IMG/VR virus record: IMGVR_UViG_2526164619_000010
Coordinates: 1 to 23,525 of that record
Direction: 5' to 3' (one strand)
Origin: a virus
Taxonomy: Duplodnaviria > Heunggongvirae > Uroviricota > Caudoviricetes
DNA: 23,525 nt
Position numbers and translations under genes: made by a program. Shown here piece by piece: positions 7,746 through 23,525 of this stretch. The notes under the pieces were generated by a model. It searched no databases. It saw only the letters and a program-made list of their open reading frames with translations, and was not told the DNA's origin. Every line of letters starts with the position of its first letter. Position 1 is the first letter of the stretch.

Positions 7746-9668
7746 GTGACTCTTAAACGGGCCTGTTCCCTGCTGACGGTGAAATCCTTCAGTGAGGATG
7801 AACGGGTGATCACCGGGATTGCGTCAACGCCTTCTCCGGATCGGGATGGTGACATCCTGGAGCCGGAGGGCGCGGAGTTTGGCAGTGCGATCCCGTGTCT
7901 CTGGCAGCATGACCATTCCCGCCCGGTGGGGCAGTGTACGGTGCGCCGGGTCAGCGAAGGGCTGGAAATCACGGCAACACTGGTGAAGCCCGTACCGGAT
8001 ATGCCGTCGCAACTGGCTGCCCGGCTGGATGAGGTCTGGGCGGCCATTAAGACCGGGCTGGTCAGGGGGCTGTCCGTGGGCTTCCGTCCCCATGAATACA
8101 CCTTTCTGGACGGAGGCGGACTGCATTTTCTGCGCTGGGAACTGATGGAGGTGTCTGCCGTCACCGTGCCCGCGAATGCGGAATGCACCATCCGGACCAT
8201 TAAATCTTACGACCGCCCGTTTTCTGCCGCGTCCGGCAACCGGAAACCGGTGGTGAAAATCGCATCTTCTGCCGGCGCTGCGGCACAGTCAACAACCGTT
8301 TTTCATAAGGAAAAGACCATAATGAATATTGGCGAACAGATTAAAAGTTTTGAAAACAAGCGTGTAGCGCTGGCAGCCTCCCTTGAGGAGGTCATGACCA
8401 AAGCCGCAGAGGAAGGGCGCACGCTGGATGTGGAGGAGGAAGAGCATTACGACAACACCGCAGCGGAAATCCGTCAGGTGGATGCGCACCTGAAGCGCCT
8501 GCGTGAACTGGAAGCCGGTAAGGCCGCCACGGCGCAGCCGGTGAAACAGGCCGGTAACGGGAATGTGGCCGCGGTGGCTTCTGCGCCGGTGATCCGTGTG
8601 GAGCAGAAACTGGATAAGGGGATTGGCTTCGCCCGCTTTGCCAAATCGCTGGCTGCGGCTAAAGGCGTCCGATCTGAAGCCCTGGAAGTGGCCCGTCGTC
8701 AGTATCCGGATGACAGTCGTCTGCATCATGTCCTGAAATCGGCAGTGGGCGCGGGGACCACCACGGATCCGCAGTGGGCAGGCAGCCTGTCTGAATATCA
8801 GGAATACGCACAGGACTTTATTGATTACCTGCGTCCGCAGACCATTATCGGGCGATTTGGTCAGGGCGGGATCCCTGCACTTCGTCAGGTGCCGTTCAAT
8901 ATCCGTGTGCACGCCCAGGTGTCCGGCGGTGCTGCCGGCTGGGTGGGTGAGGGTAAGGCAAAACCCCTGACGAAGTTTGATTTTGAATCCATCACCTTCA
9001 GTCATGCGAAGGTGTCGGCCATTGCGGTACTGACGGAAGAGCTGATCCGTTTTTCCAGTCCGGCAGCTGATGCGCTGGCAGAAGCGGTGGTGGCGCATCT
9101 GGACACAGACTTTGTGGACCCGAAAAAAGCCGCAGTGGCAGATGTCTCCCCGGCGTCCATCACCCATGATGTGAAGGGCAAGGCATCAACCGGTAACCCG
9201 GATGCGGATGCAGAGGCGGCGTTTGGACAGTTTGTGGCAGCAAACCTGCAGCCCACCGGTGCGGTCTGGCTGATGTCCAGCACCAATGTCCTGGCGCTGT
9301 CCATGCGTAAAAATACGCTGGGTCAGAAGGAATACCCGGACATGACCCTGCTGGGGGGGACCTTCCAGGGGCTGCCGGTGATTGTCTCCCAGTACGTGGG
9401 TGACCAGCTGGTGCTGGTGAATGCCCCGGATATTTATCTGGCGGATGACGGCGGCGTGGCAGTGGATATGTCCCGCGAAGCATCACTGGAAATGCAGTCT
9501 GAGCCGACCGGCGACAGTACCACGCCGTCGCCGGTGGAGCTGGTTTCCATGTTCCAGACAGGCAGTGTGGCCATCCGTGCGGAGCGCTGGATCAACTGGC
9601 GTCGTCGCCGTACCGCGGCGGTGGCGGTGATCACCGGTGTGAACTACGGCAGTGCGTCCGGCGGCTGA
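7746..9668 (+). CDS. fused prohead protease (HK97 S78/U35 family) - linker - major capsid protein (HK97 fold)
   Basis: 640-aa ORF; RBS AGGAGG 7734-7739, GTG start 7746. N-terminal ~170 aa (...GIASTPSPDRDGDILEPEGAEF...LWQHDHSRPVG...GLSVGFRP...VSAVTVPANAECTI) matches prohead protease; central charged/coiled segment; C-terminal ~330 aa (...WVGEGKAKPLTKFDFESITFSHAKVSAIAVLTEELIRFSSP...) matches HK97-type capsid. Confidence 0.8.
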   Translation: MTLKRACSLLTVKSFSEDERVITGIASTPSPDRDGDILEPEGAEFGSAIPCLWQHDHSRPVGQCTVRRVSEGLEITATLVKPVPDMPSQLAARLDEVWAAIKTGLVRGLSVGFRPHEYTFLDGGGLHFLRWELMEVSAVTVPANAECTIRTIKSYDRPFSAASGNRKPVVKIASSAGAAAQSTTVFHKEKTIMNIGEQIKSFENKRVALAASLEEVMTKAAEEGRTLDVEEEEHYDNTAAEIRQVDAHLKRLRELEAGKAATAQPVKQAGNGNVAAVASAPVIRVEQKLDKGIGFARFAKSLAAAKGVRSEALEVARRQYPDDSRLHHVLKSAVGAGTTTDPQWAGSLSEYQEYAQDFIDYLRPQTIIGRFGQGGIPALRQVPFNIRVHAQVSGGAAGWVGEGKAKPLTKFDFESITFSHAKVSAIAVLTEELIRFSSPAADALAEAVVAHLDTDFVDPKKAAVADVSPASITHDVKGKASTGNPDADAEAAFGQFVAANLQPTGAVWLMSSTNVLALSMRKNTLGQKEYPDMTLLGGTFQGLPVIVSQYVGDQLVLVNAPDIYLADDGGVAVDMSREASLEMQSEPTGDSTTPSPVELVSMFQTGSVAIRAERWINWRRRRTAAVAVITGVNYGSASGG

Positions 9669-9712
9669 GTCTGATAAGGAGGACGGGAGGCGTGCGCCTC
9701 CCGTAACAGGTT

Positions 9713-9934
9713 ATGGCAAAGATCCGATATCTGCAGGGCACGCATGATGCCCGGGCCGGGGATATCCGTGATGTGGCACAGCCGTGCGCGGAGGTGCTGG
9801 TTCGCCTGGGAAAGGCGGAGTACATCACGGTGCGACGTCCGGCAGGTCAGAAAAAGAAACGTGATGCGGAGCATGGCGAATGTGGAACCTTTTACAGCGA
9901 ACCCGAAAAAACCAGAAATCAGGACGTGACGTAA
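9713..9934 (+). CDS. hypothetical 73-aa protein (doubtful gene)
   Basis: ORF MAKIRYLQGTHDARAGDIRDVAQPCAEVLVRLGKAEYI... between capsid and portal; no convincing RBS; 3' end overlaps the portal start by 55 bp. Confidence 0.25.
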   Translation: MAKIRYLQGTHDARAGDIRDVAQPCAEVLVRLGKAEYITVRRPAGQKKKRDAEHGECGTFYSEPEKTRNQDVT

Positions 9935-11243
9935 GAGAGGCGGGCTGGACCAGCCTGTTTCAGGCGGTGGCTGAGCCCTTTTCCGGCGCCTGGCAGCAGG
10001 GCGTGAAAGCCGATCCGGAAGCCGTCCTCTCCTTTCATGCGGTGTTTTAGTGCATTTCGCTGATATCCCAGGATATCGCCAAAATGCGGCTGCGTCTTAT
10101 GCAGACGGATGCGCAGGGGATACGCAGGGAAACTCGCCGGGGGGATATTGCCCGCCTCTGTCGTCGTCCCAACGCCCAGCAGAACCGCATCCAGTTTTTT
10201 GAACTGTGGCTGAACGCCAAACTGCGTCACGGCAATACGGTGGTGCTGAAAATCCGTAACTCCCGGGGGCAGATCAAAGAACTGCGCATTCTGGACTGGA
10301 GCCGGGTTGAACCACTGGTGGCGGATGACGGCGAAGTGTTCTACCGCATCACGCCGGATCGGAACTGCGGGATCACTGAGGCGGTGACGGTGCCTGCCCG
10401 GGAAGTGATCCACGACCGGTTTAACTGTTTTTTCATCCGCTTATAGGGTTGCCGCCGGTGTATGCCGCCGGGCTGGCCGCCACGCAGGGGCATCATATTC
10501 AGGAAAATTCGACGTATTTTTTCAGAAATGGCGGCATGCCGTCCGGGGTGATTGAGATCCCCGGCAGTATTACGGAAGAAAATGCGAAAAAACTGAAGAG
10601 CAACTGGGACAGCGGGTATACCGGCGAAAATGCGGGGAAAACGGCCATTCTGAGCAACGGGGCAAAATACAACCCCACGACGTTTTCACCGGTGGATGCG
10701 CAGACGGTGGAACAACTGAAGATGACCGCTGAAATTGTCTGTTCGGTGTTCCGTGTCTCGGCCTACAAGATTGGCGTGGGACAACCGCCTTCCAGTGACA
10801 ACGTGGAGGCGCTGGAGCAGCAGTATTATTCCCAGTGCCTGCAGACGCTGATTGAGTCCATTGAACTGTTACTGGATGAGGCGCTGGAAACGGGGGAAAA
10901 CGAGAGTACAGAATTTGATGTCACCACGCTGCTGAGAATGGACAGTGAGCGGCGCATGAAAACGCTGGGGGATGCGGTGAAAAATACGCTTCTCACGCCC
11001 AATGAGGCCCGTAAACGGGAGAACCTGCCGCCCCTGGCCGGCGGTGATGCACTGTATCTTCAGCAGCAGAACTACAGTCTGGAGGCACTGTCCCGTCGTG
11101 ATGCCCGTGAGGATCCGTTCGCGTCGACCGGGAAAACGGCCTTAGCGCAACCGCCTGACGGCGCATCTGACGGTAATAAGGCAATCAGTGAAACAGAGCA
11201 TGATGCGGTGAAAGCGATGTTCAGGGGAATTCTGAAAAAATGA
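9880..11243 (+). pseudogene. portal protein (HK97 family) inactivated by an in-frame TAG (10048-10050) and a 1-bp deletion in a T-run (10428-10433)
   Basis: Three pieces: 9880-10050 (ATG with GGAG 10 bp upstream), 10051-10446 in the same frame after the TAG, and 10449-11243 in another frame. Piece 3 carries the portal signature ...FFRNGGMPSGVIEIPG...GENAGKTAILSNGAKY...DAQTVEQLKMTAEIVCSVF...EFDVTTLLRMDSERR...LTPNEARKRENLPPLAGGD. Confidence 0.8.
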
Positions 11244-12301
11244 ATGAACGTGAACTGTCCATTATTCGTGCCCTGGGAGAAGAATTCGCCACGGTGCTGG
11301 CGGATTTACAGCGCACATTTGAGGAGAAGATGAGCGCGCAGGCACAAGCGTTTGAAGAGAAACTGGCTTCCCTGTCCGCTCTGTTACAGAAGCATGTGAC
11401 GGTGGATGAGGTTAGCCCTGTTCTGCAGGCGATGGTGGATGACGCAGTGGGGGCCATTCCGCTACCGCGTGATGGTCGCGATTATGATCCGGAAGTACTG
11501 AAGCAGGCGGTGAATGATGCGGTCGCGAAAATACCGGTGCCGGCAGACGGCAAAAGTATCACCCCCGATGATGTGCGTCCGATGCTTGAGCAGATGGTGA
11601 AAGAGGCTGTAAGCCATATTCCTGTTCCGCGTGATGGTCGTGACTACGATCCGGAAGTACTGAAGCAGGTGGTGAATGATGCGGTCGCAAATATTCCGCA
11701 GCCGGCGGACGGTAAAGGTCTCACCCCGGATGATGTGCGTCCGATGCTTGAACAGATGGTGACGGAGGCTGTAAGCCATATCCCTGTTCCGCGTGATGGT
11801 CGTGACTACGATCCGGATGTTCTGCAGAAGGCGGTTCTGGATGCGGTGAGTGCCCTGCCGGCTTCGCAGGACGGGCGTGATGCCACGGCTCTGGAAATAC
11901 TCCCCGCCATTGACGTTCAAAAATCCTTTCCCCGGGGCACGTATGCCACACACCAGGGCGGACTCTGGCGGGCGTATGAAAAAACGCACGGGATGCGGGG
12001 ATGGGAATGCCTGGTTGACGGGGTGGCGGATATTGACGTCAGCATGACGGGTGAGCGGTTGTTCTCTGTGGTGGTCCGGCAGAGCAGTGGCCAGCGTACG
12101 GAAAAAACATTTTCCCTGCCGGTGATGCTCTACCGCGGTGTGTTCAGAGCCGGTGAAACCTACCACCCCGGCGATATGGTGACGTGGGGGGGCTCGCTGT
12201 GGCACTGCAACAGTATGACCGAAGATAAACCCGGAGAAGCTCATTCATCAGCCTGGACCCTGGCTGCAAAACGTGGGCGGGATGCAGGAGGCGGAAAATG
12301 A
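11240..12301 (+). CDS. head-module protein of unknown function containing ~2.6 tandem 54-aa repeats
   Basis: 353-aa ORF translationally coupled to portal (ATGA at 11240-11243) and to the connector gene (ATGA at 12298-12301). Repeat unit IPVPRDGRDYDPEVLKQAVNDAVAKIPVPADGKSITPDDVRPMLEQMVKEAVSH. No family recognised. Confidence 0.6.
   Translation: MNERELSIIRALGEEFATVLADLQRTFEEKMSAQAQAFEEKLASLSALLQKHVTVDEVSPVLQAMVDDAVGAIPLPRDGRDYDPEVLKQAVNDAVAKIPVPADGKSITPDDVRPMLEQMVKEAVSHIPVPRDGRDYDPEVLKQVVNDAVANIPQPADGKGLTPDDVRPMLEQMVTEAVSHIPVPRDGRDYDPDVLQKAVLDAVSALPASQDGRDATALEILPAIDVQKSFPRGTYATHQGGLWRAYEKTHGMRGWECLVDGVADIDVSMTGERLFSVVVRQSSGQRTEKTFSLPVMLYRGVFRAGETYHPGDMVTWGGSLWHCNSMTEDKPGEAHSSAWTLAAKRGRDAGGGK
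11456..11880 (+). repeat. in-frame tandem repeat, 162-bp unit, ~2.6 copies (copies start 11456, 11618, 11780)
   Basis: Direct comparison of the three units shows high nucleotide identity with mostly synonymous or conservative differences; the third copy diverges after ~100 bp. Confidence 0.85.
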
Positions 12302-15158: not shown

Positions 15159-16759
15159 TCACCCGGAGAAGGTAAATCCCTCAAGAGGCAGCAACTCTGC
15201 CAGTCGCTCCTCCGGCCACTCCGGCAGACGCATCAGGACGTCTGTCAACCAGGCATGCGGCTCCAGACCGTTGCGTTTCGCGGTTTCCAGCAAGCTCATT
15301 ATTTGCGCGGCGCGTTCTCCCGCCATCTGCGAACCGGCGAACAGCCACGATTTTCTGCCCAGAACCACGTTTTTGATGGCCCGTTCACACACATTATTAT
15401 CCAGCGGCACCGCACCATCTTCCAGGAAGCGGCTCAGTTCCACGCGATGAGACAGCGCATAGGCAATGGCTTTGTGTAATGCCTTTCCCGGAGAACATTG
15501 CGGTTCCTGCTCTTCAAGCCATGACCACAGTTCTTCCAGTATCGGACGGGCATAACGCTGTCGCCACTGGCGGATTTTTTCCACGGGGCGGCTACTGATC
15601 TTCTTCTCAAGACGGTACAACCCCGCGATTTTCTTCACGGCTATGGCAGCCCGTGGATCTTTACTGATTTTATACAGGTCGGCGAAGCCCCTGCGGGCAT
15701 GGGCCCAGCATCCGGCCAGCGTGATCTCCGGCACTTTGTTTGCCAGAGTCCGGTAAGCTTTATGTCCGTCGACAACCAGCGTCCCGCCCCAGCCCTGAAG
15801 CCAGTTTTCAGGATACTCATGGCTACGTCCGGTCCGGCAGTCGAAGCACACAACTGACGGTCCCGTCCTTTCTCCACTGACGTATGCCCACAGATAACCG
15901 GAGCAGGATTTACCGCCTTTCTTCGTGTTCAGGATCTTCAGGGTAGTCTCATCTGCATGCACCACCGGACGGTTTATCAACTCGCGATGGAGTAACGCCG
16001 CCAGGGGAGATAATTCGGCACCCGCCGCGCCAACCATGTCAGCCATCGAACTGACGGGCAGCCCGACATCTGAACGGGCAAAGACCTGTTGCTGGCGATA
16101 CAGAGGCAGGTGGTCACCGTATTTATTGATGATCACCTGTGCGATGACTGATGGCTCAACGGCACTTTTCGGGAGGATATGTGCCGGCATTTCACCGCTG
16201 AACACCTTCTGACAACAGGGACAACTGTATTGCGGACGGACATAACGGTTCACCACAAAGTGAGCGGGAATATACTCCAGCTTTTCACTCACCGCATCGC
16301 GGATATAGTGCAGCGGCTCGTCACATTCAGGGCAATGGTCAGTGTCCGGCTGGATAATTTTTTCCACCCGTGGAAGATGAACCGGTAAGGGTTTGCGTAT
16401 CGGGCGTGAACGGGACGCTTTTTCATCTTCTTCAGGGGATTGCGGGAGCAGTTTATCCAGATGTGCGGTAAGCGCGGCGATATCGGCATCAACATCCTCT
16501 TCGAATAGGGAGCGTTGCATACCAGCCAGCGTTTCACATTTTTTCCGAAGCGCTGTTGACGAACCAGTTTCAGCATTTCTTCCAGAAGCTGGATGCGCCG
16601 GCTTTTCTCCAGTAATTCCCGCTCTTTTTCGGCATTCTCCGACATGACTTCTTGTACCATGGCAAGTGCCATAGCACGCAGTTTTTCGATGTCATTCGTG
16701 GTGTTGAGAGCGGAGATATCCATACAGGGGAGTATATCACTCCAGATACGGATATTCAT
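15159..16759 (-). pseudogene. IS66-family transposase TnpC, frameshifted by a 1-bp deletion in an A-run (plus-strand T-run 16539-16544)
   Basis: N-terminal leucine-zipper part ...LLEKSRRIQLLEEMLKLVRQQRFGK (from 16759 or 16723) is in one frame; the remaining 453 codons (15159-16520, with CxxC...CxxC zinc motif and DDE-type core) are in another. Restoring one A gives a continuous ...RFGKKCETLAGMQRSLFEE... reading. Confidence 0.75.
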
Positions 16760-16765
16760 TATTTT

Positions 16766-17158
16766 TCACTGAGTTAGCAGTGTATTTTGCGTGTTTTCAG
16801 GGCGCAGTTCAGGTTCATTCTGCCAGACCCATTTCGTCAGGTCATGTCCCTTAACCTGCTGCCAGTCAACACCGGCAATCAGCCAGTTAAACTCGTCGGG
16901 AGTGAGGTGCCAGGCAGCGTCATTTGCACGTGGCCAGCGGAAGCTGCCTTTGTGCAGACGGCGGGTACACAACCACACCCCGTGTTTATCCCACCGGAGA
17001 ACTTTGATACGCGAACGGGCTTTGTTAACAAAGACGAAGGCGGCTCCCTCATGCCATGTCGACCGGAGTTCATCCTGTATATACTGCATCAGTGAGTCGA
17101 TGCCCCGGCGCATGTCAACAGGTTTAATTGCGATGAAGACATTATCAGGACTGAGCAT
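16766..17158 (-). CDS. IS66-family TnpB (orf2)
   Basis: About 130 aa from ATG 17158 (MLSPDNVFIAIKPVDMRRGIDSLMQYIQDEL...VLRWDKHGVWLCTRRLHKGSFRWPR...), typical IS66 Orf2; start overlaps tnpA stop. Confidence 0.8.
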   Translation of the reverse strand: MLSPDNVFIAIKPVDMRRGIDSLMQYIQDELRSTWHEGAAFVFVNKARSRIKVLRWDKHGVWLCTRRLHKGSFRWPRANDAAWHLTPDEFNWLIAGVDWQQVKGHDLTKWVWQNEPELRPENTQNTLLTQ

Positions 17159-17474
17159 ATTTGAGTGCCCTGAAGACATCGGTAAGTTGTGACGGCTGAC
17201 AGCACATCCGTACTCCACCGGGAAGGAAGAGCGTGACTGGCTCATTCGTGACGGGCTGTGGTACATCAGCATGCAGTGGTGGCGCAATATGAACGGGAAG
17301 AACGGTCGGTTCATTTGCCCGGCGTTCAGCTTTTGCGACATCCTGCGGCCATTCGCGAAGTGATGTGAAGGGAATATCGTTGAGTTCATAGTATTGCTGA
17401 CGTGTAAGACCACTGGCGCGCCAGGCAGCAACGTGCTGCCTTTTCTGTTCAATGGTCCATCGGGGTTTTGACAT
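17145..17474 (-). CDS. IS66-family TnpA (orf1)
   Basis: 109-aa ORF MSKPRWTIEQKRQHVAAWRASGLTRQQYYELNDIPFTSLREWPQD... first gene of the IS66 operon. Confidence 0.8.
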   Translation of the reverse strand: MSKPRWTIEQKRQHVAAWRASGLTRQQYYELNDIPFTSLREWPQDVAKAERRANEPTVLPVHIAPPLHADVPQPVTNEPVTLFLPGGVRMCCQPSQLTDVFRALKYAQS

Positions 17475-17617
17475 CGATTATCTCCGGTAAGTTGGTGAAT
17501 GGATGTCGGTAATACTAACTGACCGAAGATCCCTGTGAAGATGACTTCCCCGTAACGACACTCAAAATTTCGGCAAATTCACAGTCATTCCAGTCGGAGA
17601 TCCAGCGGGCGTCCCGT

Positions 17618-20600
17618 ATGGGCAGTGAATATTACCGGACCCTGCAGAATGGCGGACGTCATGCCGCTGCTGCCGCACGGGAACAGCGCCGCGCCCTTGC
17701 AGAACTGAACAGTCAGTTGACGGAAATTCGCGGTTCTGCTGTCGGAATGGCTGGCGCATTTGCCGGTGCCTTTGCCACCGGACACCTGATTTCGCTGGCC
17801 GATGAGTGGGGTTCCGTGAATGCCCGTCTGAAACAGGCATCTCAGTCATCGGATGAATTCTCGTCATCACAGAAAGTGCTGATGGATATCAGTCAGCGAA
17901 CAGGTACCGCGTTTTCGGATAATGCGGCCCTGTTTGCCCGTTCGGCTGCCTCGATGCGTGAATATGGTTACAGTGCTGATGATGTGCTGAAGGTGACGGA
18001 GGCCATTTCGACAGGACTGAAACTGTCAGGGGCTGGAGTTGCGGAATCCGGTTCGGTGATCACCCAGTTCAGCCAGGCACTGGCACAGGGTATACTGCGT
18101 GGCGAAGAATTTAATGCTGTTAACGAAAATGGCGACCGGGTGATCCGCGCGCTTGCTGCGGGGATGGGTGTGGCCCGTAAAGATCTGAAGGCAATGGCGG
18201 ATGACGGAAAACTGACAGCGGATAAAGTGGTCCCTGCGTTAATCAGCCAGCTGGGGATATTACGTGATGAATATGCGGCCATGCCGGAAACGGTTTCCGG
18301 TAGTAACACGAAGGTGGAAAACGCCTTTATGGCCTGGGTGGGCGGAGTGAATGAGGCCTGCGGGGTGACAAAAACGCTCTCCGGTGTGCTGAACGGTGTT
18401 GCCGGACAGATTGATAATGTGGCAACAGCTGTGGGGGCGCTGGTTGCCGTCGGGGTTGCCCGGTACTTTGGCAATATGGCCTCCGGAGCGATGTCTGCCA
18501 CGGCAGGACTTGTGACGGCTGCACGTAATGAAGTTGCACTGGCGGAAGCACAGTTCAGGGGAACGCAGATTGCCACGGCGCGGGCAAGGGCAGCCGTGTA
18601 CCGTGCTCAGCAGGCCGTGGCGGCAGCCCGCGGGACGGAGATGCAGATTGCTGCAGAGGCCCGTCTGGCGGCCACACAGGAACGCCTGAACAGAAATATT
18701 GCTGCCAGAAGCGCCGCCCAGAATGCGCTGAACAGTACAACGGCGGTGGGCTCACGTCTGATGAGCGGTGCGCTGGGGCTGGTTGGTGGCGTACCCGGAC
18801 TGGTGATGCTGGGGGCTGCAGCATGGTACACGCTGTACCAGAATCAGGAGCAGGCCAGGGAGTCTGCGCGCCAGTATGCACTGACGATAGATGAAATCGC
18901 GCATAAAACGCCGTCAATGTCTTTGCCTGAAGCCTCAGATAATGAAGGACGAACACGGGCGGCGCTGACAGAGCAGAACCGGCTGATTGATGAACAGGCT
19001 AGTCGGGTGAAATCCCTGCAGGAAAAAATCGCAGGATATCAGTATGTTCTGGCGAACCCGGGCTGGACGACCGGTGACGGATTCATGATAAACCATCTGA
19101 CCTCGGTGAAGACCGTAACGGAAGGGCTTGCTCAGGCAACAGAGCAGCTTGCCGTTGAGCAGTCCCGTCTGGCACTGATGCAGGAAAAAGCGCAGTCCAT
19201 TCAGGATGTGCTTGCCGGGCTGGAAGACCGTCGTGTGGCGTTAATTCGTCAGCAGGCGGCAGAGCAGAATAAGGTGTACCAGTCCATGCTGGTTATGAAC
19301 GGTCAGCATACGGAATTCAACCGTCTGCTGGGGCTGGGTAATGAACTGCTTCAGCAGCGGCAGGGACTGGTGAATGTGCCGTTACGGCTGCCACAGGCCA
19401 CTCTGGATGATAAACAGCAGAGTGCCCTGACAAAAACAGAGCGTGAGCTGGCCCTGTCCAGACTGAAAGGGGAAGAAAAAGAGCGTGTCCGACTGGGGTA
19501 TGCGGCGGATGACCTCGGTTTTGTGGGTGATCCGTATCAGGAGGCGAGACAACGTTATATCAGTAATGCCCTGGAAGCCTGGCGCAATAACGAGGCGAAT
19601 AAACCCAAATCCCGGGGTGGAAAATCAGAGACGGAAAAAGCGGAAGACAGTTTTTCCCGGCTGCTGAAGCAGCAGAAAGAGCAACTGGCACTGGCGGGGC
19701 AGAATACAGAGCTGGCGAAGCTGAAATACCAGACTGCGCAGGGCGAACTGAAAACCCTGACGGAGATGCAGAAGCAGGAACTGCTGCGCAATGCGGCCCT
19801 GATTGACCAGCAAAAAATCCGGGAGCAGTTGCGGTCCCGGGAAGAGACCCTGAAGAATGATAATGTGGCTGCGCGTGCATCAAATGAAGCGGAACTGCTG
19901 GGGTACGGGCAGGGAGAGCGGCTCCGTGAACGCATGCGGGAGTTGCAGCAGATCCGCGACAGTTTCCGCCAGAAGGATGCGGACCTTCAGTCTCAGTATC
20001 AGACCGGGGATATCAGTGAGGATTTTTACAGACAGGCTCTGGCATAGAACGCGCAGTATCTGAGTGAACGTCTGAAAGAGCAGGAAGCCTTTTATGCCGA
20101 ATCGGATGTGCAGCGTGCGGACTGGCAGAAAGGGCTGCAGGAGGGATTCAGTAACTGGGTGGATAATGCGTCCGATTACGCCTCACAGGCAGCACAGCTT
20201 GCGACGGAGGGTATCTCAGGGATGGTGAATAACATCACGGAGATGCTGAACGGAAATAAAGTGGAATGGCGCAGCTGGGCCTCATCAGTGCTGCAGGAAA
20301 TATCAAAAGTTCTTATGAATGCCGCGATTGTCAACGGGATCAAGACGGCGGCAAACAGTATGTCCGGAGCGGGAGGATTTATCGGCAGTATTGGTAGCTG
20401 GCTGGGCGGTGCGGTGGCCAATGCAAAAGGCGGTGTGTATACCTCGGCAAACCTGAGTGCGTACAGCAACAGTATTGTGGATACGCCCACGTACTTTGCC
20501 TTTGCAAAAGGGGCGGGACTGATGGGGGAGGCCGGTCCTGAAGCCATTATGCCCCTGACCCGGGCGGCGGATGGCTCGCTGGGTGTGCGAGCGGTGGGCA

Positions 20601-20779
20601 GTATGAACGGCAGTGCAGGTCTGGTGTATTCCCCGGTCTACCATATCGCCATTCAGAATGACGGGACTAATGGCCAGATAGGGCCGGAAGCTGCGGGCAG
20701 CCTTGTGCAACTGATTGACCAGCGGGTGCAGGCGGTGATGCTGTCCATGCGACGTGACGGAGGAATGCTGAGTGGCTGA
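17618..20779 (+). pseudogene. tail tape measure protein (lambda gpH-like C-terminus) interrupted by an in-frame TAG at 20045-20047
   Basis: 809-codon ORF 17618-20047 and 223-codon ORF 20108-20779 are in the same frame, separated only by the amber codon (...RQALA*NAQYLSERLKEQ...). C-terminal part ...VYHIAIQNDGTNGQIGPEAAGSLVQLIDQRVQAVMLSMRRDGGMLSG matches the lambda H C-terminus. Confidence 0.8.
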
Positions 20780-21113
20780 GATAAAAACGCTGCATCTGGT
20801 CCCGCGTGAAGGGATGCAGGTGAGTGAGAAACCGTCGGTGGCGAGGGTACGGTTTGGTGACGGTTATGAACAGCGCCGCCCGACGGGACTTAATGCCCGA
20901 CTGAAGACGTTTCAGGCGGTGTTCCGGGTGACGGATGAGGCGACCCGGCGATGGCTGGAAGAGTTTTTATCGTGGCATGGTGGTTACCGTGCCTTTTTGT
21001 GGCGACCGCCGAAACATAACCGGACGGTGAGGGTGGTATGCCGGGAGTGGAGCGTCACAGATAACGCCAGGTACAGTGATTTCAGTTGTACGATTGAGCA
21101 GGTGGTGAACTGA
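20772..21113 (+). CDS. M: minor tail protein M
   Basis: 113-aa ORF, GTG start overlapping the tape-measure stop; ...VARVRFGDGYEQRRPTGLNARLKTFQAVF...HGGYRAFLWRPP...FSCTIEQVVN parallels lambda gpM. Confidence 0.85.
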   Translation: MAEIKTLHLVPREGMQVSEKPSVARVRFGDGYEQRRPTGLNARLKTFQAVFRVTDEATRRWLEEFLSWHGGYRAFLWRPPKHNRTVRVVCREWSVTDNARYSDFSCTIEQVVN

Positions 21114-21811
21114 TGCAGGATATTCGCGAAGAAAGGCTGAACGAGTCGGTTAAGTCAGAGCAGTCACCGCGGGTGGTACTCTGGGAAATCGACCTGACGG
21201 TACAGGGTGGTGAGCGGTATTTTTTCTGTAATGAGCTGAATGAAAAAGGGGAGCCGGTCACCTGGCAGGGGCGTAAGTATGAGGCATACCCGATTGACGG
21301 CAGCGGCTTTGAGATGAACGGCCGGGGCAGCAGTGCCAGACCGTCGCTGACGGTGTCCAATCTGTTCGGTCTGGTCACCGGGATGGCGGAAGACCTGCAG
21401 AGTCTGGTGGGGGCCACGGTGGTCCGCCGCCGGGTGTATGCCCGTTTTCTGGATGCGGTGAATTTCGTTGCGGGCAATCCGGAGGCGGACCCGGAGCAGG
21501 AGCTGAGTGACCGCTGGGTGGTGGAGCAGATGTCGCAGCTGACAGCCATGACGGCCTCGTTTGTGCTGGCTACACCGACCGAGACGGACGGGGCGCTGTT
21601 TCCCGGTCGTATCATGCTGGCGAACACCTGTATGTGGACCTACCGCTCTGATGAGTGTGGTTACACGGGCGGGGCTGTGGCGGATGAGTTCGATAAACCC
21701 ACCACGGATATCCGTAAGGACAGATGCAGCAAGTGCATGCGCGGGTGTGAACTGCGCAGGAATGTCGGCAATTTTGGCGGTTTCCTTTCCATTAATAAAC
21801 TTTCGCAGTAA
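21113..21811 (+). CDS. L: minor tail protein L
   Basis: 232-aa ORF MQDIREERLNESVKSEQSPRVVLWEIDLTVQGGERYFFCNELNEKGEPVTWQGRKYEAYPIDGSGFE...NVGNFGGFLSINKLSQ, near-collinear with lambda gpL including the cysteine cluster; TGATG overlap with M. Confidence 0.9.
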   Translation: MQDIREERLNESVKSEQSPRVVLWEIDLTVQGGERYFFCNELNEKGEPVTWQGRKYEAYPIDGSGFEMNGRGSSARPSLTVSNLFGLVTGMAEDLQSLVGATVVRRRVYARFLDAVNFVAGNPEADPEQELSDRWVVEQMSQLTAMTASFVLATPTETDGALFPGRIMLANTCMWTYRSDECGYTGGAVADEFDKPTTDIRKDRCSKCMRGCELRRNVGNFGGFLSINKLSQ

Positions 21812-21821
21812 ATCCCGGTTT

Positions 21822-22565
21822 ATGACACAGACTGAATCAGCGATTCTGGCGCATGCCCGGCGGTGTGCGCCTGCGGAGTCGTGCGGCTTCGTGATAAGCA
21901 CGCCGGAGGGGGAGCGGTATATCCCTTGTGTGAATATTTCTGCAGAGCCGGAGGCGTATTTTCGTATCGCACCGGAAGACTGGCTGCGGGCAGAGATGCA
22001 GGGGGAGATTGTGGCACTGGTCCACAGTCATCCCGGTGAGCTGCCCTGGCTGAGCGAGGCTGACCGGCGGCTGCAGATAAAAAGCGCACTGCCCTGGTGG
22101 CTGGTCTGCCGGGGGGAAATTCATAAATTCCGCTGTGTGCCACATCTGACAGGACGGCGCTTTGAGCACGGGGTGACGGACTGTTACACGCTGTTCCGGG
22201 ATGCATACCATCTGGCGGGAATTGATATGCCGGATTTTCATCGCGAGGATGACTGGTGGCGCAACGGCCAGAACCTGTACCTGGACAATATGGCGGTCAC
22301 CGGCTTTTACCGGGTGCCCCTGTCCTCTGCACAGCCGGGCGATATCCTGCTGTGCTGCTTCGGCGCATCGGTGGCTAATCATGCCGCCATTTACTGTGGC
22401 AACGGTGAACTGCTTCACCATATTCCTGAACAACTGAGTAAACGGGAGAGGTATTCCGAAAAATGGCAACGACGAACGCATTCTGTCTGGCGTCACCGCC
22501 ACTGGCACACATCTGCCTTCACGGGGATTTACAACGATTTGGCCGCCGCCTCAGCCTGTATGTGA
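21822..22565 (+). CDS. K: tail assembly protein K (JAB/MPN-like HSHP motif plus NlpC/P60-like C-terminal part)
   Basis: 247-aa ORF from ATG 21822 (track ORF starts further upstream at 21561): MTQTESAILAHARRCAPAESCGFV...EIVALVHSHPGELPWLSEADRR...GVTDCYTLFRDAYHLAGIDMPDFHR..., as in lambda gpK. Confidence 0.9.
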   Translation: MTQTESAILAHARRCAPAESCGFVISTPEGERYIPCVNISAEPEAYFRIAPEDWLRAEMQGEIVALVHSHPGELPWLSEADRRLQIKSALPWWLVCRGEIHKFRCVPHLTGRRFEHGVTDCYTLFRDAYHLAGIDMPDFHREDDWWRNGQNLYLDNMAVTGFYRVPLSSAQPGDILLCCFGASVANHAAIYCGNGELLHHIPEQLSKRERYSEKWQRRTHSVWRHRHWHTSAFTGIYNDLAAASACM

Positions 22566-23139
22566 ACACGGCAGCGGAAGCCATTCGCGCCCTGTCGATG
22601 CAGATGCCGGGCTTTCGCCTTCAGATGAACGAAGGCTGGTACCAGATACGTATTGCCGGTGAAAACACGGCACCGGAGGTGGTGTACGCCCGCCTTCACG
22701 AACAGCTGGGTGAGGGAACGGTCATCCACATTGTGCCGCGACTGGCCGGGGCCGGAAAGGGTGGACTGCAGATTGTGTTGGGGGCGGCAGCCATCGTGGG
22801 CTCTTTCTTCACTGCCGGGGCATCAATGGCGTTATGGGGTTCAGCCCTGGCAGCCGGTGGTTTTTCTGCCACCACGATGCTGTTTTCACCTGGAGCCAGC
22901 ATCTGGGCGGTGTGGCCCAGATGCTGGCCCCGAAGGCAAAAACACCGGATTACCGCGCAACGGATAACGGCAGACAGAACACGTACTTTTCCTCGCTGGA
23001 TAACATGATTGCCCAGGGGAACCCGATGCCGGTGCCTTACGGGGAAATGCTGGTTGGCTCCCGTCGTATATCCCAGGACATCAGCACCCGTGATGAAGGC
23101 GGGGGCGGAAAGGTCGTGGTTATCGGGCGACAGGGATAA
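22463..23139 (+). pseudogene. I: tail assembly protein I, frameshifted by a 1-bp deletion near 22890-22900 (start codon uncertain)
   Basis: N-terminal part (22463-23008 frame, ...LHGDLQRFGRRLSLYVNTAAEAIRALSMQMPGF...IHIVPRLAGAGKGG...) and C-terminal part (22834-23139 frame, ...GGVAQMLAPKAKTPDYRATDNGRQNTYFSSLDNMIAQGNPMPVPYGEMLVGSRRISQ...) both resemble lambda gpI but sit in different frames. Confidence 0.75.
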
Positions 23140-23310
23140 AACATAAAAAAATCCCGCAGTGATCGCGGAGCTGCGGGGACAGACAAAGATTAGAGTTAAG
23201 GAGTTGTTTTTGTTACCCGGGCAAAAAAACACTAACGCAGAGAAATTATAAGCGCCACAGTCAGTGTGTGAAAATGTGAAGATATTCAGAAATTTTATTC
23301 CGTCATGACG

Positions 23311-23342
23311 CAGGCACCCGGTGAGGTGCCTGTTGTTTTTGT
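23311..23342 (+). terminator. intrinsic-terminator-like hairpin plus T-rich tract just upstream of J
   Basis: CAGGCACC-CGGTGA-GGTGCCTG stem-loop (23311-23332) followed by TTGTTTTTGTG. Confidence 0.35.
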
Positions 23343-23375
23343 GAGTGAACAATTATCACGGTAAGAGGTGATGTA

Positions 23376-23525
23376 ATGGGCAAAGGTGGCGGCAGGGCGC
23401 ACACACCGCGTGAGGCGAAAGACAATCTCAAATCCACGCAGATGATGAGCGTGATTGATGCGATTGGTGAGGGACCGATAGAAGGCCCGGTGAAAGGCCT
23501 GCAGAGTATTCTGGTGAACAAAACC
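23376..23525 (+). CDS. J: host specificity / central tail fibre protein J, N-terminal 50 codons (continues beyond window)
   Basis: MGKGGGRAHTPREAKDNLKSTQMMSVIDAIGEGPIEGPVKGLQSILVNKT is nearly identical in pattern to the lambda gpJ N-terminus; RBS AAGAGGTGA upstream. Confidence 0.88.
   Translation, partial: MGKGGGRAHTPREAKDNLKSTQMMSVIDAIGEGPIEGPVKGLQSILVNKT

Follow-up and report, generated by a model that had tools for sequence, protein, structure and literature searches.

An inherited amber codon interrupts the portal gene of a decayed lambdoid prophage in Shigella flexneri K-315, in which a shortened T-run is probably a homopolymer miscall

The portal gene of a defective Shigella prophage is interrupted twice in its database record, which raises the question of whether both interruptions are mutations carried by the organism and what each of them means for the prophage. 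We analyzed a stretch of 23,525 nucleotides (hereafter the window), in which an amber codon (TAG, 10048-10050) and a run of six T residues (T6, 10428-10433, portal codons 183-185; both on the plus strand) break what would otherwise be one continuous frame. An earlier note, made from the sequence of the window, had read both as lesions of an HK97-family portal gene.

The window corresponds to contig AKMY01000042.1 of assembly GCA_000268165.1, as indicated by identity over 7 kb and an exact-protein match, and its end coincides with the end of that contig. The record is a 2012 draft assembly, and the strain table in PMC6397287 lists GCA_000268165.1 as Shigella flexneri K-315 from Bangladesh. The head module runs in the order terS (5481-6044), terL (6041-7683), a fusion of S78 protease and capsid (7746-9668), a 73-aa gene, the portal gene, a gene for a repeat protein, a connector gene and tail genes. 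The conserved 73-aa gene (9713-9934, plus strand), which overlaps the portal start, matches PHROG 829 (E 9e-39) and is annotated in relatives, with no function assigned. The portal gene, flanked by terS, terL and the S78 protease-capsid fusion and by Phage_connect_1, head-closure and HK97-gp10-like genes, is located where a portal gene is expected in a head module. The prophage of S. flexneri K-315 is a decayed lambdoid prophage with a Stx-phage-like (Pankowvirus-type) head module.

The interrupted gene comprises 454 codons and belongs to the HK97 family of portals (Pfam PF04860). When translated from the ATG at 9880, which is the annotated portal start in relatives (position 3181 in both L001, E. 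coli YZ_2_1, and L002), the frame reads ...EAVLSFHAVF and stops at the amber codon, so that the first fragment (9880-10050, plus strand) consists of codons 1-56. The same frame continues behind the amber codon as CISLISQDIAKMRLRL... and forms a second fragment (10051-10446, plus strand), which contains an ATG at 10084 and covers codons 58 to about 185, followed by out-of-frame residues that end ...NCFFIRL at a stop codon (10444-10446). Sense reading of the portal resumes in frame 3 (...FFHPLIGLPPVYAAGLA...) and proceeds to the TGA at 11241-11243; this third fragment (10428-11243, plus strand, +2 frame relative to the first) holds residues 184-454. When the intact 454-aa portal of E. coli YZ_2_1 (L001:3181-4545) was compared with the window using tblastn, it matched two frames: from residue 1 onward in frame 1, starting at 9880, with identity dropping beyond the T-run, and over residues 184-454 in frame 3 (10428-11240; 99.6% identity, 271 residues). 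With both lesions reverted, the gene of the window encodes 454 aa and differs from the E. coli YZ_2_1 protein only by P294S. The GenBank gene calls already split the portal into pieces of 56, 115 and 264 aa. The coordinates and translations that the earlier note gave for the two interruptions of one frame are exact in the window.

The family assignment made in that note was likewise borne out. The intact orthologue matched Pfam PF04860 (Phage_portal) with 271 bits (E 1.6e-80) over model positions 2-321 of 321, the domain spanning portal residues 54-382. Further, it matched the solved HK97-family portals 9lbn (E 3.6e-30), 8cez (the HK97 portal, E 5.4e-20) and 6tba (titled "Phage portal protein, HK97 family", E 1.1e-10), and the gene also matches PHROG portal families. 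The fragments in the window carry precomputed PF04860 matches, including one on the called 264-aa gene.

To place the two lesions among related genes, we aligned the window base by base with three intact relatives, as the earlier note had suggested, and examined 80 full-length portal homologues from IMG/VR contigs. Relative to the three intact genes, the window has a C to A change at 10049, which converts TCG (Ser) at codon 57 into TAG, and lacks one T of a run that is T7 in all three. Codon 57 is TCG or GCG in the aligned relatives, phage 2851 having GCG (Ala). Among the 80 homologues, a stop never occurs at this codon, which encodes Ser in 41 genes and Ala in 38 genes; the T-run is T7 in 78 and T8 in one. 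Uninterrupted genes were found in 74 of the 80, so that about 7% of resident copies carry some lesion. The alignments and the homologue survey therefore indicate that both lesions are real features of the record and derived states, rather than chance breaks of an open reading frame. Thus, intact orthologues exist and the interruptions are derived, as is expected of a pseudogene.

The two lesions differ in their distribution. The 56-aa product truncated by the amber codon was found among the gene calls of 11 contigs. These contigs stem from at least nine sequence datasets, which include ERR6004966, ERR6006273, ERR6006294, ERR200337, ERR5961276, SRR066117, SRR066119 and GCA_049894805.1. This recurrence shows that the amber codon is a genuine mutation that the strains of one lineage have inherited, and the claim that it inactivates the portal gene thereby rests on a lesion reproducible in independent data. 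A 33-mer containing the amber codon had no match among GTDB species representatives, an absence that carries no information, as few Shigella genomes are included there. We suggest that the nonsense change from TCG (Ser57) to TAG arose once and was passed down one sub-lineage of strains, whose prophage had already lost its large terminase; in the AKMY assembly, that prophage is also fragmented by IS insertions. As lineage markers for this sub-clade of S. flexneri, the terminase lesions and the inherited amber codon could be of use.

The T6 run, in contrast, is not shared by the lineage. All six sister assemblies that carry the amber codon and cover the run have T7 (6/6), and T6 was found only in AKMY01000042 and in the Logan assembly of run SRR066117, a 2010 read set. 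Accordingly, the T6-specific products (264 and 120 aa) occur in the gene index only in AKMY and SRR066117, and a 34-mer containing T6 had no match in metagenome contigs or in the contigs of species-representative genomes. The Logan contig of SRR066117 differs from the window by one substitution (8962), and the two T6 datasets may derive from the same strain or even from the same reads. In the T7 sister assemblies, a 386-aa open reading frame extends from the ATG at 10084 to the normal stop; gene callers place the start there, and the product matches PF04860. The T-run deletion of the earlier note thus stands as a property of the record and does not extend to the sister strains. The note had named T7 together with a sense codon at 10048 as the finding that would speak against it; the sister strains have the T7, but they keep TAG at 10048.

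Is T6 then a miscall or a recent mutation of strain K-315? Over the approximately 10 kb that the window shares with the sister assemblies, the differences private to the window are four homopolymers that are each one base shorter and no substitutions. The four runs are located at 5353 (A7 in the window, A8 in the sisters), 7723, 10428 and 13776 (each T6 in the window and T7 in the sisters), the last of which breaks the gene for tail-completion protein gp17. In the IS66-family element, a T-run at 16538 is one base shorter than in two other copies of that element in the same assembly, which truncates the transposase open reading frame. The sole substitution in the region (10550) divides the lineage, and the window shares it with ERR6004966 and ERR5961276. 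In mutation spectra, substitutions should outnumber, or at least equal, homopolymer indels over a region of this length. Four to five shortened runs and no private substitutions therefore point to homopolymer miscalling in a data set of 2010-2012. Further, the SRR066117 contig starts exactly at the T-run at 7723, as expected if reads disagree on the length of the run. Three observations argue against a miscall. At 5353, the A7 of the window is also found in the intact E. coli relative L021, such that the sister strains may have gained a base there and the window need not be undercalled. Even in a pyrosequencing consensus, four errors per 10 kb would be a high rate. Finally, T6 occurs in two assemblies. 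On balance, the homopolymer pattern suggests that T6 at 10428 is probably a miscall, and a real, very recent replication slippage private to the strain is the less probable explanation, though one with an appreciable chance of being correct.

The earlier note had taken both lesions as real. On that reading, the amber codon was inherited by K-315 and the loss of one T is a recent slippage in a gene that was already dead. Consistent with it, T6 appears in two assemblies produced with different software (AKMY01000042 and Logan SRR066117), slippage in homopolymers is the commonest type of indel in genes that are not under selection, and six of the 80 homologous portals elsewhere carry frame-breaking lesions, one of them T8 at this very run. 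T6 would have to be taken as a real mutation if SRR066117 represents Illumina data or stems from another strain. However, both T6 datasets may go back to one set of reads, the sister assemblies have T7 throughout, and four shortened homopolymers accompanied by no substitution would be unexpected for real divergence, unless the strain were a mismatch-repair mutator. We therefore regard the reality of both lesions in K-315 as a tentative reading, to which we give distinctly less than an even chance. The opposite reading, that both are errors of sequencing or assembly and that the portal is intact in the organism, could appeal to the homopolymer-length noise of the 2012 draft record. The amber codon is, however, a substitution rather than a change of homopolymer length, and it recurs in at least nine datasets, several recent ERR runs and a further GenBank assembly among them, which refutes this reading as regards the amber codon; the probability of the reading as a whole is next to nil. 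Taken together, it is very probable that the portal is dead through the inherited amber codon and that T6, most likely a miscall, stands outside the inherited decay. Homopolymer frameshifts in the AKMY01000042 record should thus not be counted as pseudogenisation without resequencing.

With the amber codon, translation yields 56 of the 454 residues and breaks off where the PF04860 domain has only just begun, and a loss of portal function is inferred from this position. T6 has no further effect on function, since the amber codon has stopped translation 126 codons before it. The remaining head genes were also examined. The large terminase gene (terL, 6041-7683, plus strand; Pfam TerL_ATPase on a 392-aa piece) is a pseudogene when compared with the intact 553-aa gene of L021: codon 393 of 553 changed from CGA to TGA (7217-7219), and 19 bp flanked by CGGAA direct repeats were deleted after 7400. 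Both terL lesions are common to all sister assemblies that cover them, in which the same three fragments are called, and the terminase lesions that the earlier note had reported are therefore confirmed beyond this record. The fused prohead protease-major capsid gene (7746-9668, plus strand; 640 aa, Pfam Peptidase_S78 and Phage_capsid) has an open reading frame. Compared with E. coli YZ_2_1, it has a 15-bp in-frame deletion after 9069, between ATGCGCTGG direct repeats, and the sister assemblies that cover this site (L015-L017 and L019) do not differ from the window. With the portal gene and terL both broken, head assembly and packaging are predicted not to work. The note's conclusion that the head-assembly pathway is non-functional thus holds on account of the portal amber codon and the terL lesions common to the sister assemblies. 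Further, the prophage is defective with or without the T-run lesion, because terL is broken and three IS elements are accompanied by losses of lysis and tail genes.

Two readings in which the portal would still be of use were also weighed. An N-terminally truncated portal of 386 aa could be made from the ATG at 10084 (Met69) and might retain a function for the host, since the T7 strains keep this frame open to the normal stop and it is annotated with a PF04860 match. In the window, however, the frame itself is broken by T6. Moreover, such a product would lack residues 1-68 and with them the beginning of the Pfam domain, whose first residue is 54; a Shine-Dalgarno motif was not evident just upstream of 10084 on inspection of the sequence; the partner terminase is dead; and with one substitution in 10 kb, too little time has passed in the lineage for an open frame to be a sign of selection. 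We consider a functional truncated portal very improbable. A full-length portal might alternatively be produced by recoding, if a suppressor tRNA read the amber codon and the T-run acted as a programmed frameshift site. Slippery T-runs exist, as do phages with suppressor tRNAs, but nothing specific to this locus favors recoding. A search of the 23,525-nt window found no tRNA gene, and we therefore rejected a phage-borne suppressor tRNA. A programmed frameshift site was rejected as well, because 78 of the 80 homologues have T7 in a single frame and T6 is private to AKMY and SRR066117. The relatives use one uninterrupted frame with no stop at codon 57, the lesions are limited to one young lineage, and the lineage with the amber codon also has a dead terminase gene and, in the AKMY assembly, IS insertions. 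Recoding is thus exceedingly improbable, and the tRNA-free window and the single frame of the relatives indicate that nothing encoded in the window compensates for the interruptions. We return to the reading of a portal that is dead through the amber codon.

The rest of the prophage has been rearranged by insertion elements. An IS1 lies at the left end of the window (751-1254). An IS3-family element (3717-4873, minus strand) replaces the lysis cassette and truncates an HNH gene; about 5 kb that the E. coli relative has is missing there. An IS66-family element (from about 15159 to about 17500, minus strand) takes the place of the last part of the tail chaperone genes and of the 5' part of the tape-measure gene, with about 0.5 kb missing at this junction compared with the E. 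coli relative. The right-hand 7.3 kb of the window (16222-23525), which comprises the end of the IS66-family element, the tape-measure gene and the distal tail genes, recurs on AKMY01000006, 38 and 71. Two of these three contigs end at the same base as AKMY01000042, and the copies are identical from 18307 onward. This segment is either a multi-copy repeat or a repeat unitig that was placed several times. The tape-measure gene is split at 20047-20222 into pieces of 809 and 185 aa, whereas intact relatives encode 1080 aa. Other samples also have the 185-aa piece, which indicates that the break is shared at least in part; an exact-protein search with the 809-aa fragment returned only AKMY01000042 among the matches listed. 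A 247-aa tail protein, tried as a marker for the tail regions of sister strains, was too widespread (255 blocks), its matches being unrelated E. coli prophages.

The 3' end of the portal gene shows a further variation in run length. Near this end, at 11224-11228 (plus strand), the window has GGGGA, and relatives have G5 or G6. The G5 allele yields a separate 454-aa portal, the TGA of which overlaps the next ATG; it was found in 53 IMG/VR contigs, and 41 of the 48 that could be scored give 454 aa. The G6 allele, found in 39 IMG/VR contigs, joins the portal in frame to the downstream repeat protein; where the fused frame could be scored, it is open over 734-1023 aa in 22 of 25 contigs. The portal of phage 2851, annotated at 859 aa, is such a G6 fusion, and the NCBI pipeline PGAP flags the split G5 form as "frameshifted". 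Since each allele is widespread and the fusion remains an open frame, the G-run might act as a functional switch that is prone to slippage, at the genetic or the transcriptional level, and that determines how much plain portal is made relative to portal with appendage in this phage group. We consider such a switch unlikely; the run may instead be a neutral polymorphism. A programmed -1 frameshift on the A6 preceding the portal stop (CUG AAA AAA UGA) was rejected as a conserved feature, because other split-form phages have CGA AAA TGA; with A6 not conserved among split-form phages, no conserved slippery site was found at the junction between the portal and the downstream gene.

The downstream gene (11240-12301, plus strand; 353 aa) overlaps the portal stop in an ATGA. 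It contains a tandem repeat of 162 bp (54 aa) at 11465-11835, with 2.3 copies in the window. The number of repeats varies, E. coli YZ_2_1 and phage 2851 having one more copy and Stx1_14040 two more. Databases give the 353-aa protein the label "portal protein" solely on account of its fusion to the portal in some phages. Family and structure searches with this protein gave no informative match, returning a sub-threshold CBM_5_12 and, in the PDB, designed helical repeats only.

Shigella is a genus marked by IS expansion, accumulation of pseudogenes and genome reduction. The lesion of the portal gene is routine lambdoid prophage decay in Shigella, which is already known, and mechanistically it offers nothing new. 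It adds one more inactivated structural gene to a defective Shigella prophage that is unable to make particles and has little biological weight. Like other defective prophages of Shigella, the window carries IS1, IS3-family and IS66-family insertions, nonsense mutations and small deletions, and there is nothing unusual in this respect.

The closest known systems are the Stx-converting phages. In a megablast search with positions 9700-11400, near-full-length matches annotated as "phage portal protein" were found in 1245 of 5426 complete E. coli genomes, and 92 phage records were matched, most of them Stx-converting (2851, BP-4795, YYZ-2008, and Stx1a and PPompW prophages). At the nucleotide level, this portal region shares 94-97% identity with that of long-tailed Stx-converting phages and their lambdoid relatives; for E. 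coli prophage copies, the value reaches 99.7%. The Stx-converting phages (2851/Pankowvirus, BP-4795 and YYZ-2008, and the Stx1a and PPompW prophages of EHEC) have the same gene order as the window. Unlike these phages, the window has a stop at codon 57, the T6 run and a terL pseudogene, and its lysis genes and part of its tail genes have been removed by IS elements. When compared with the HK97 gp3 portal (8cez) and PF04860, the repaired portal of the window type matches the full Pfam model, and the match to HK97 itself is remote (E 5e-20). Further, unlike that of HK97, the head module of the window has a fused protease-capsid gene upstream of the portal.
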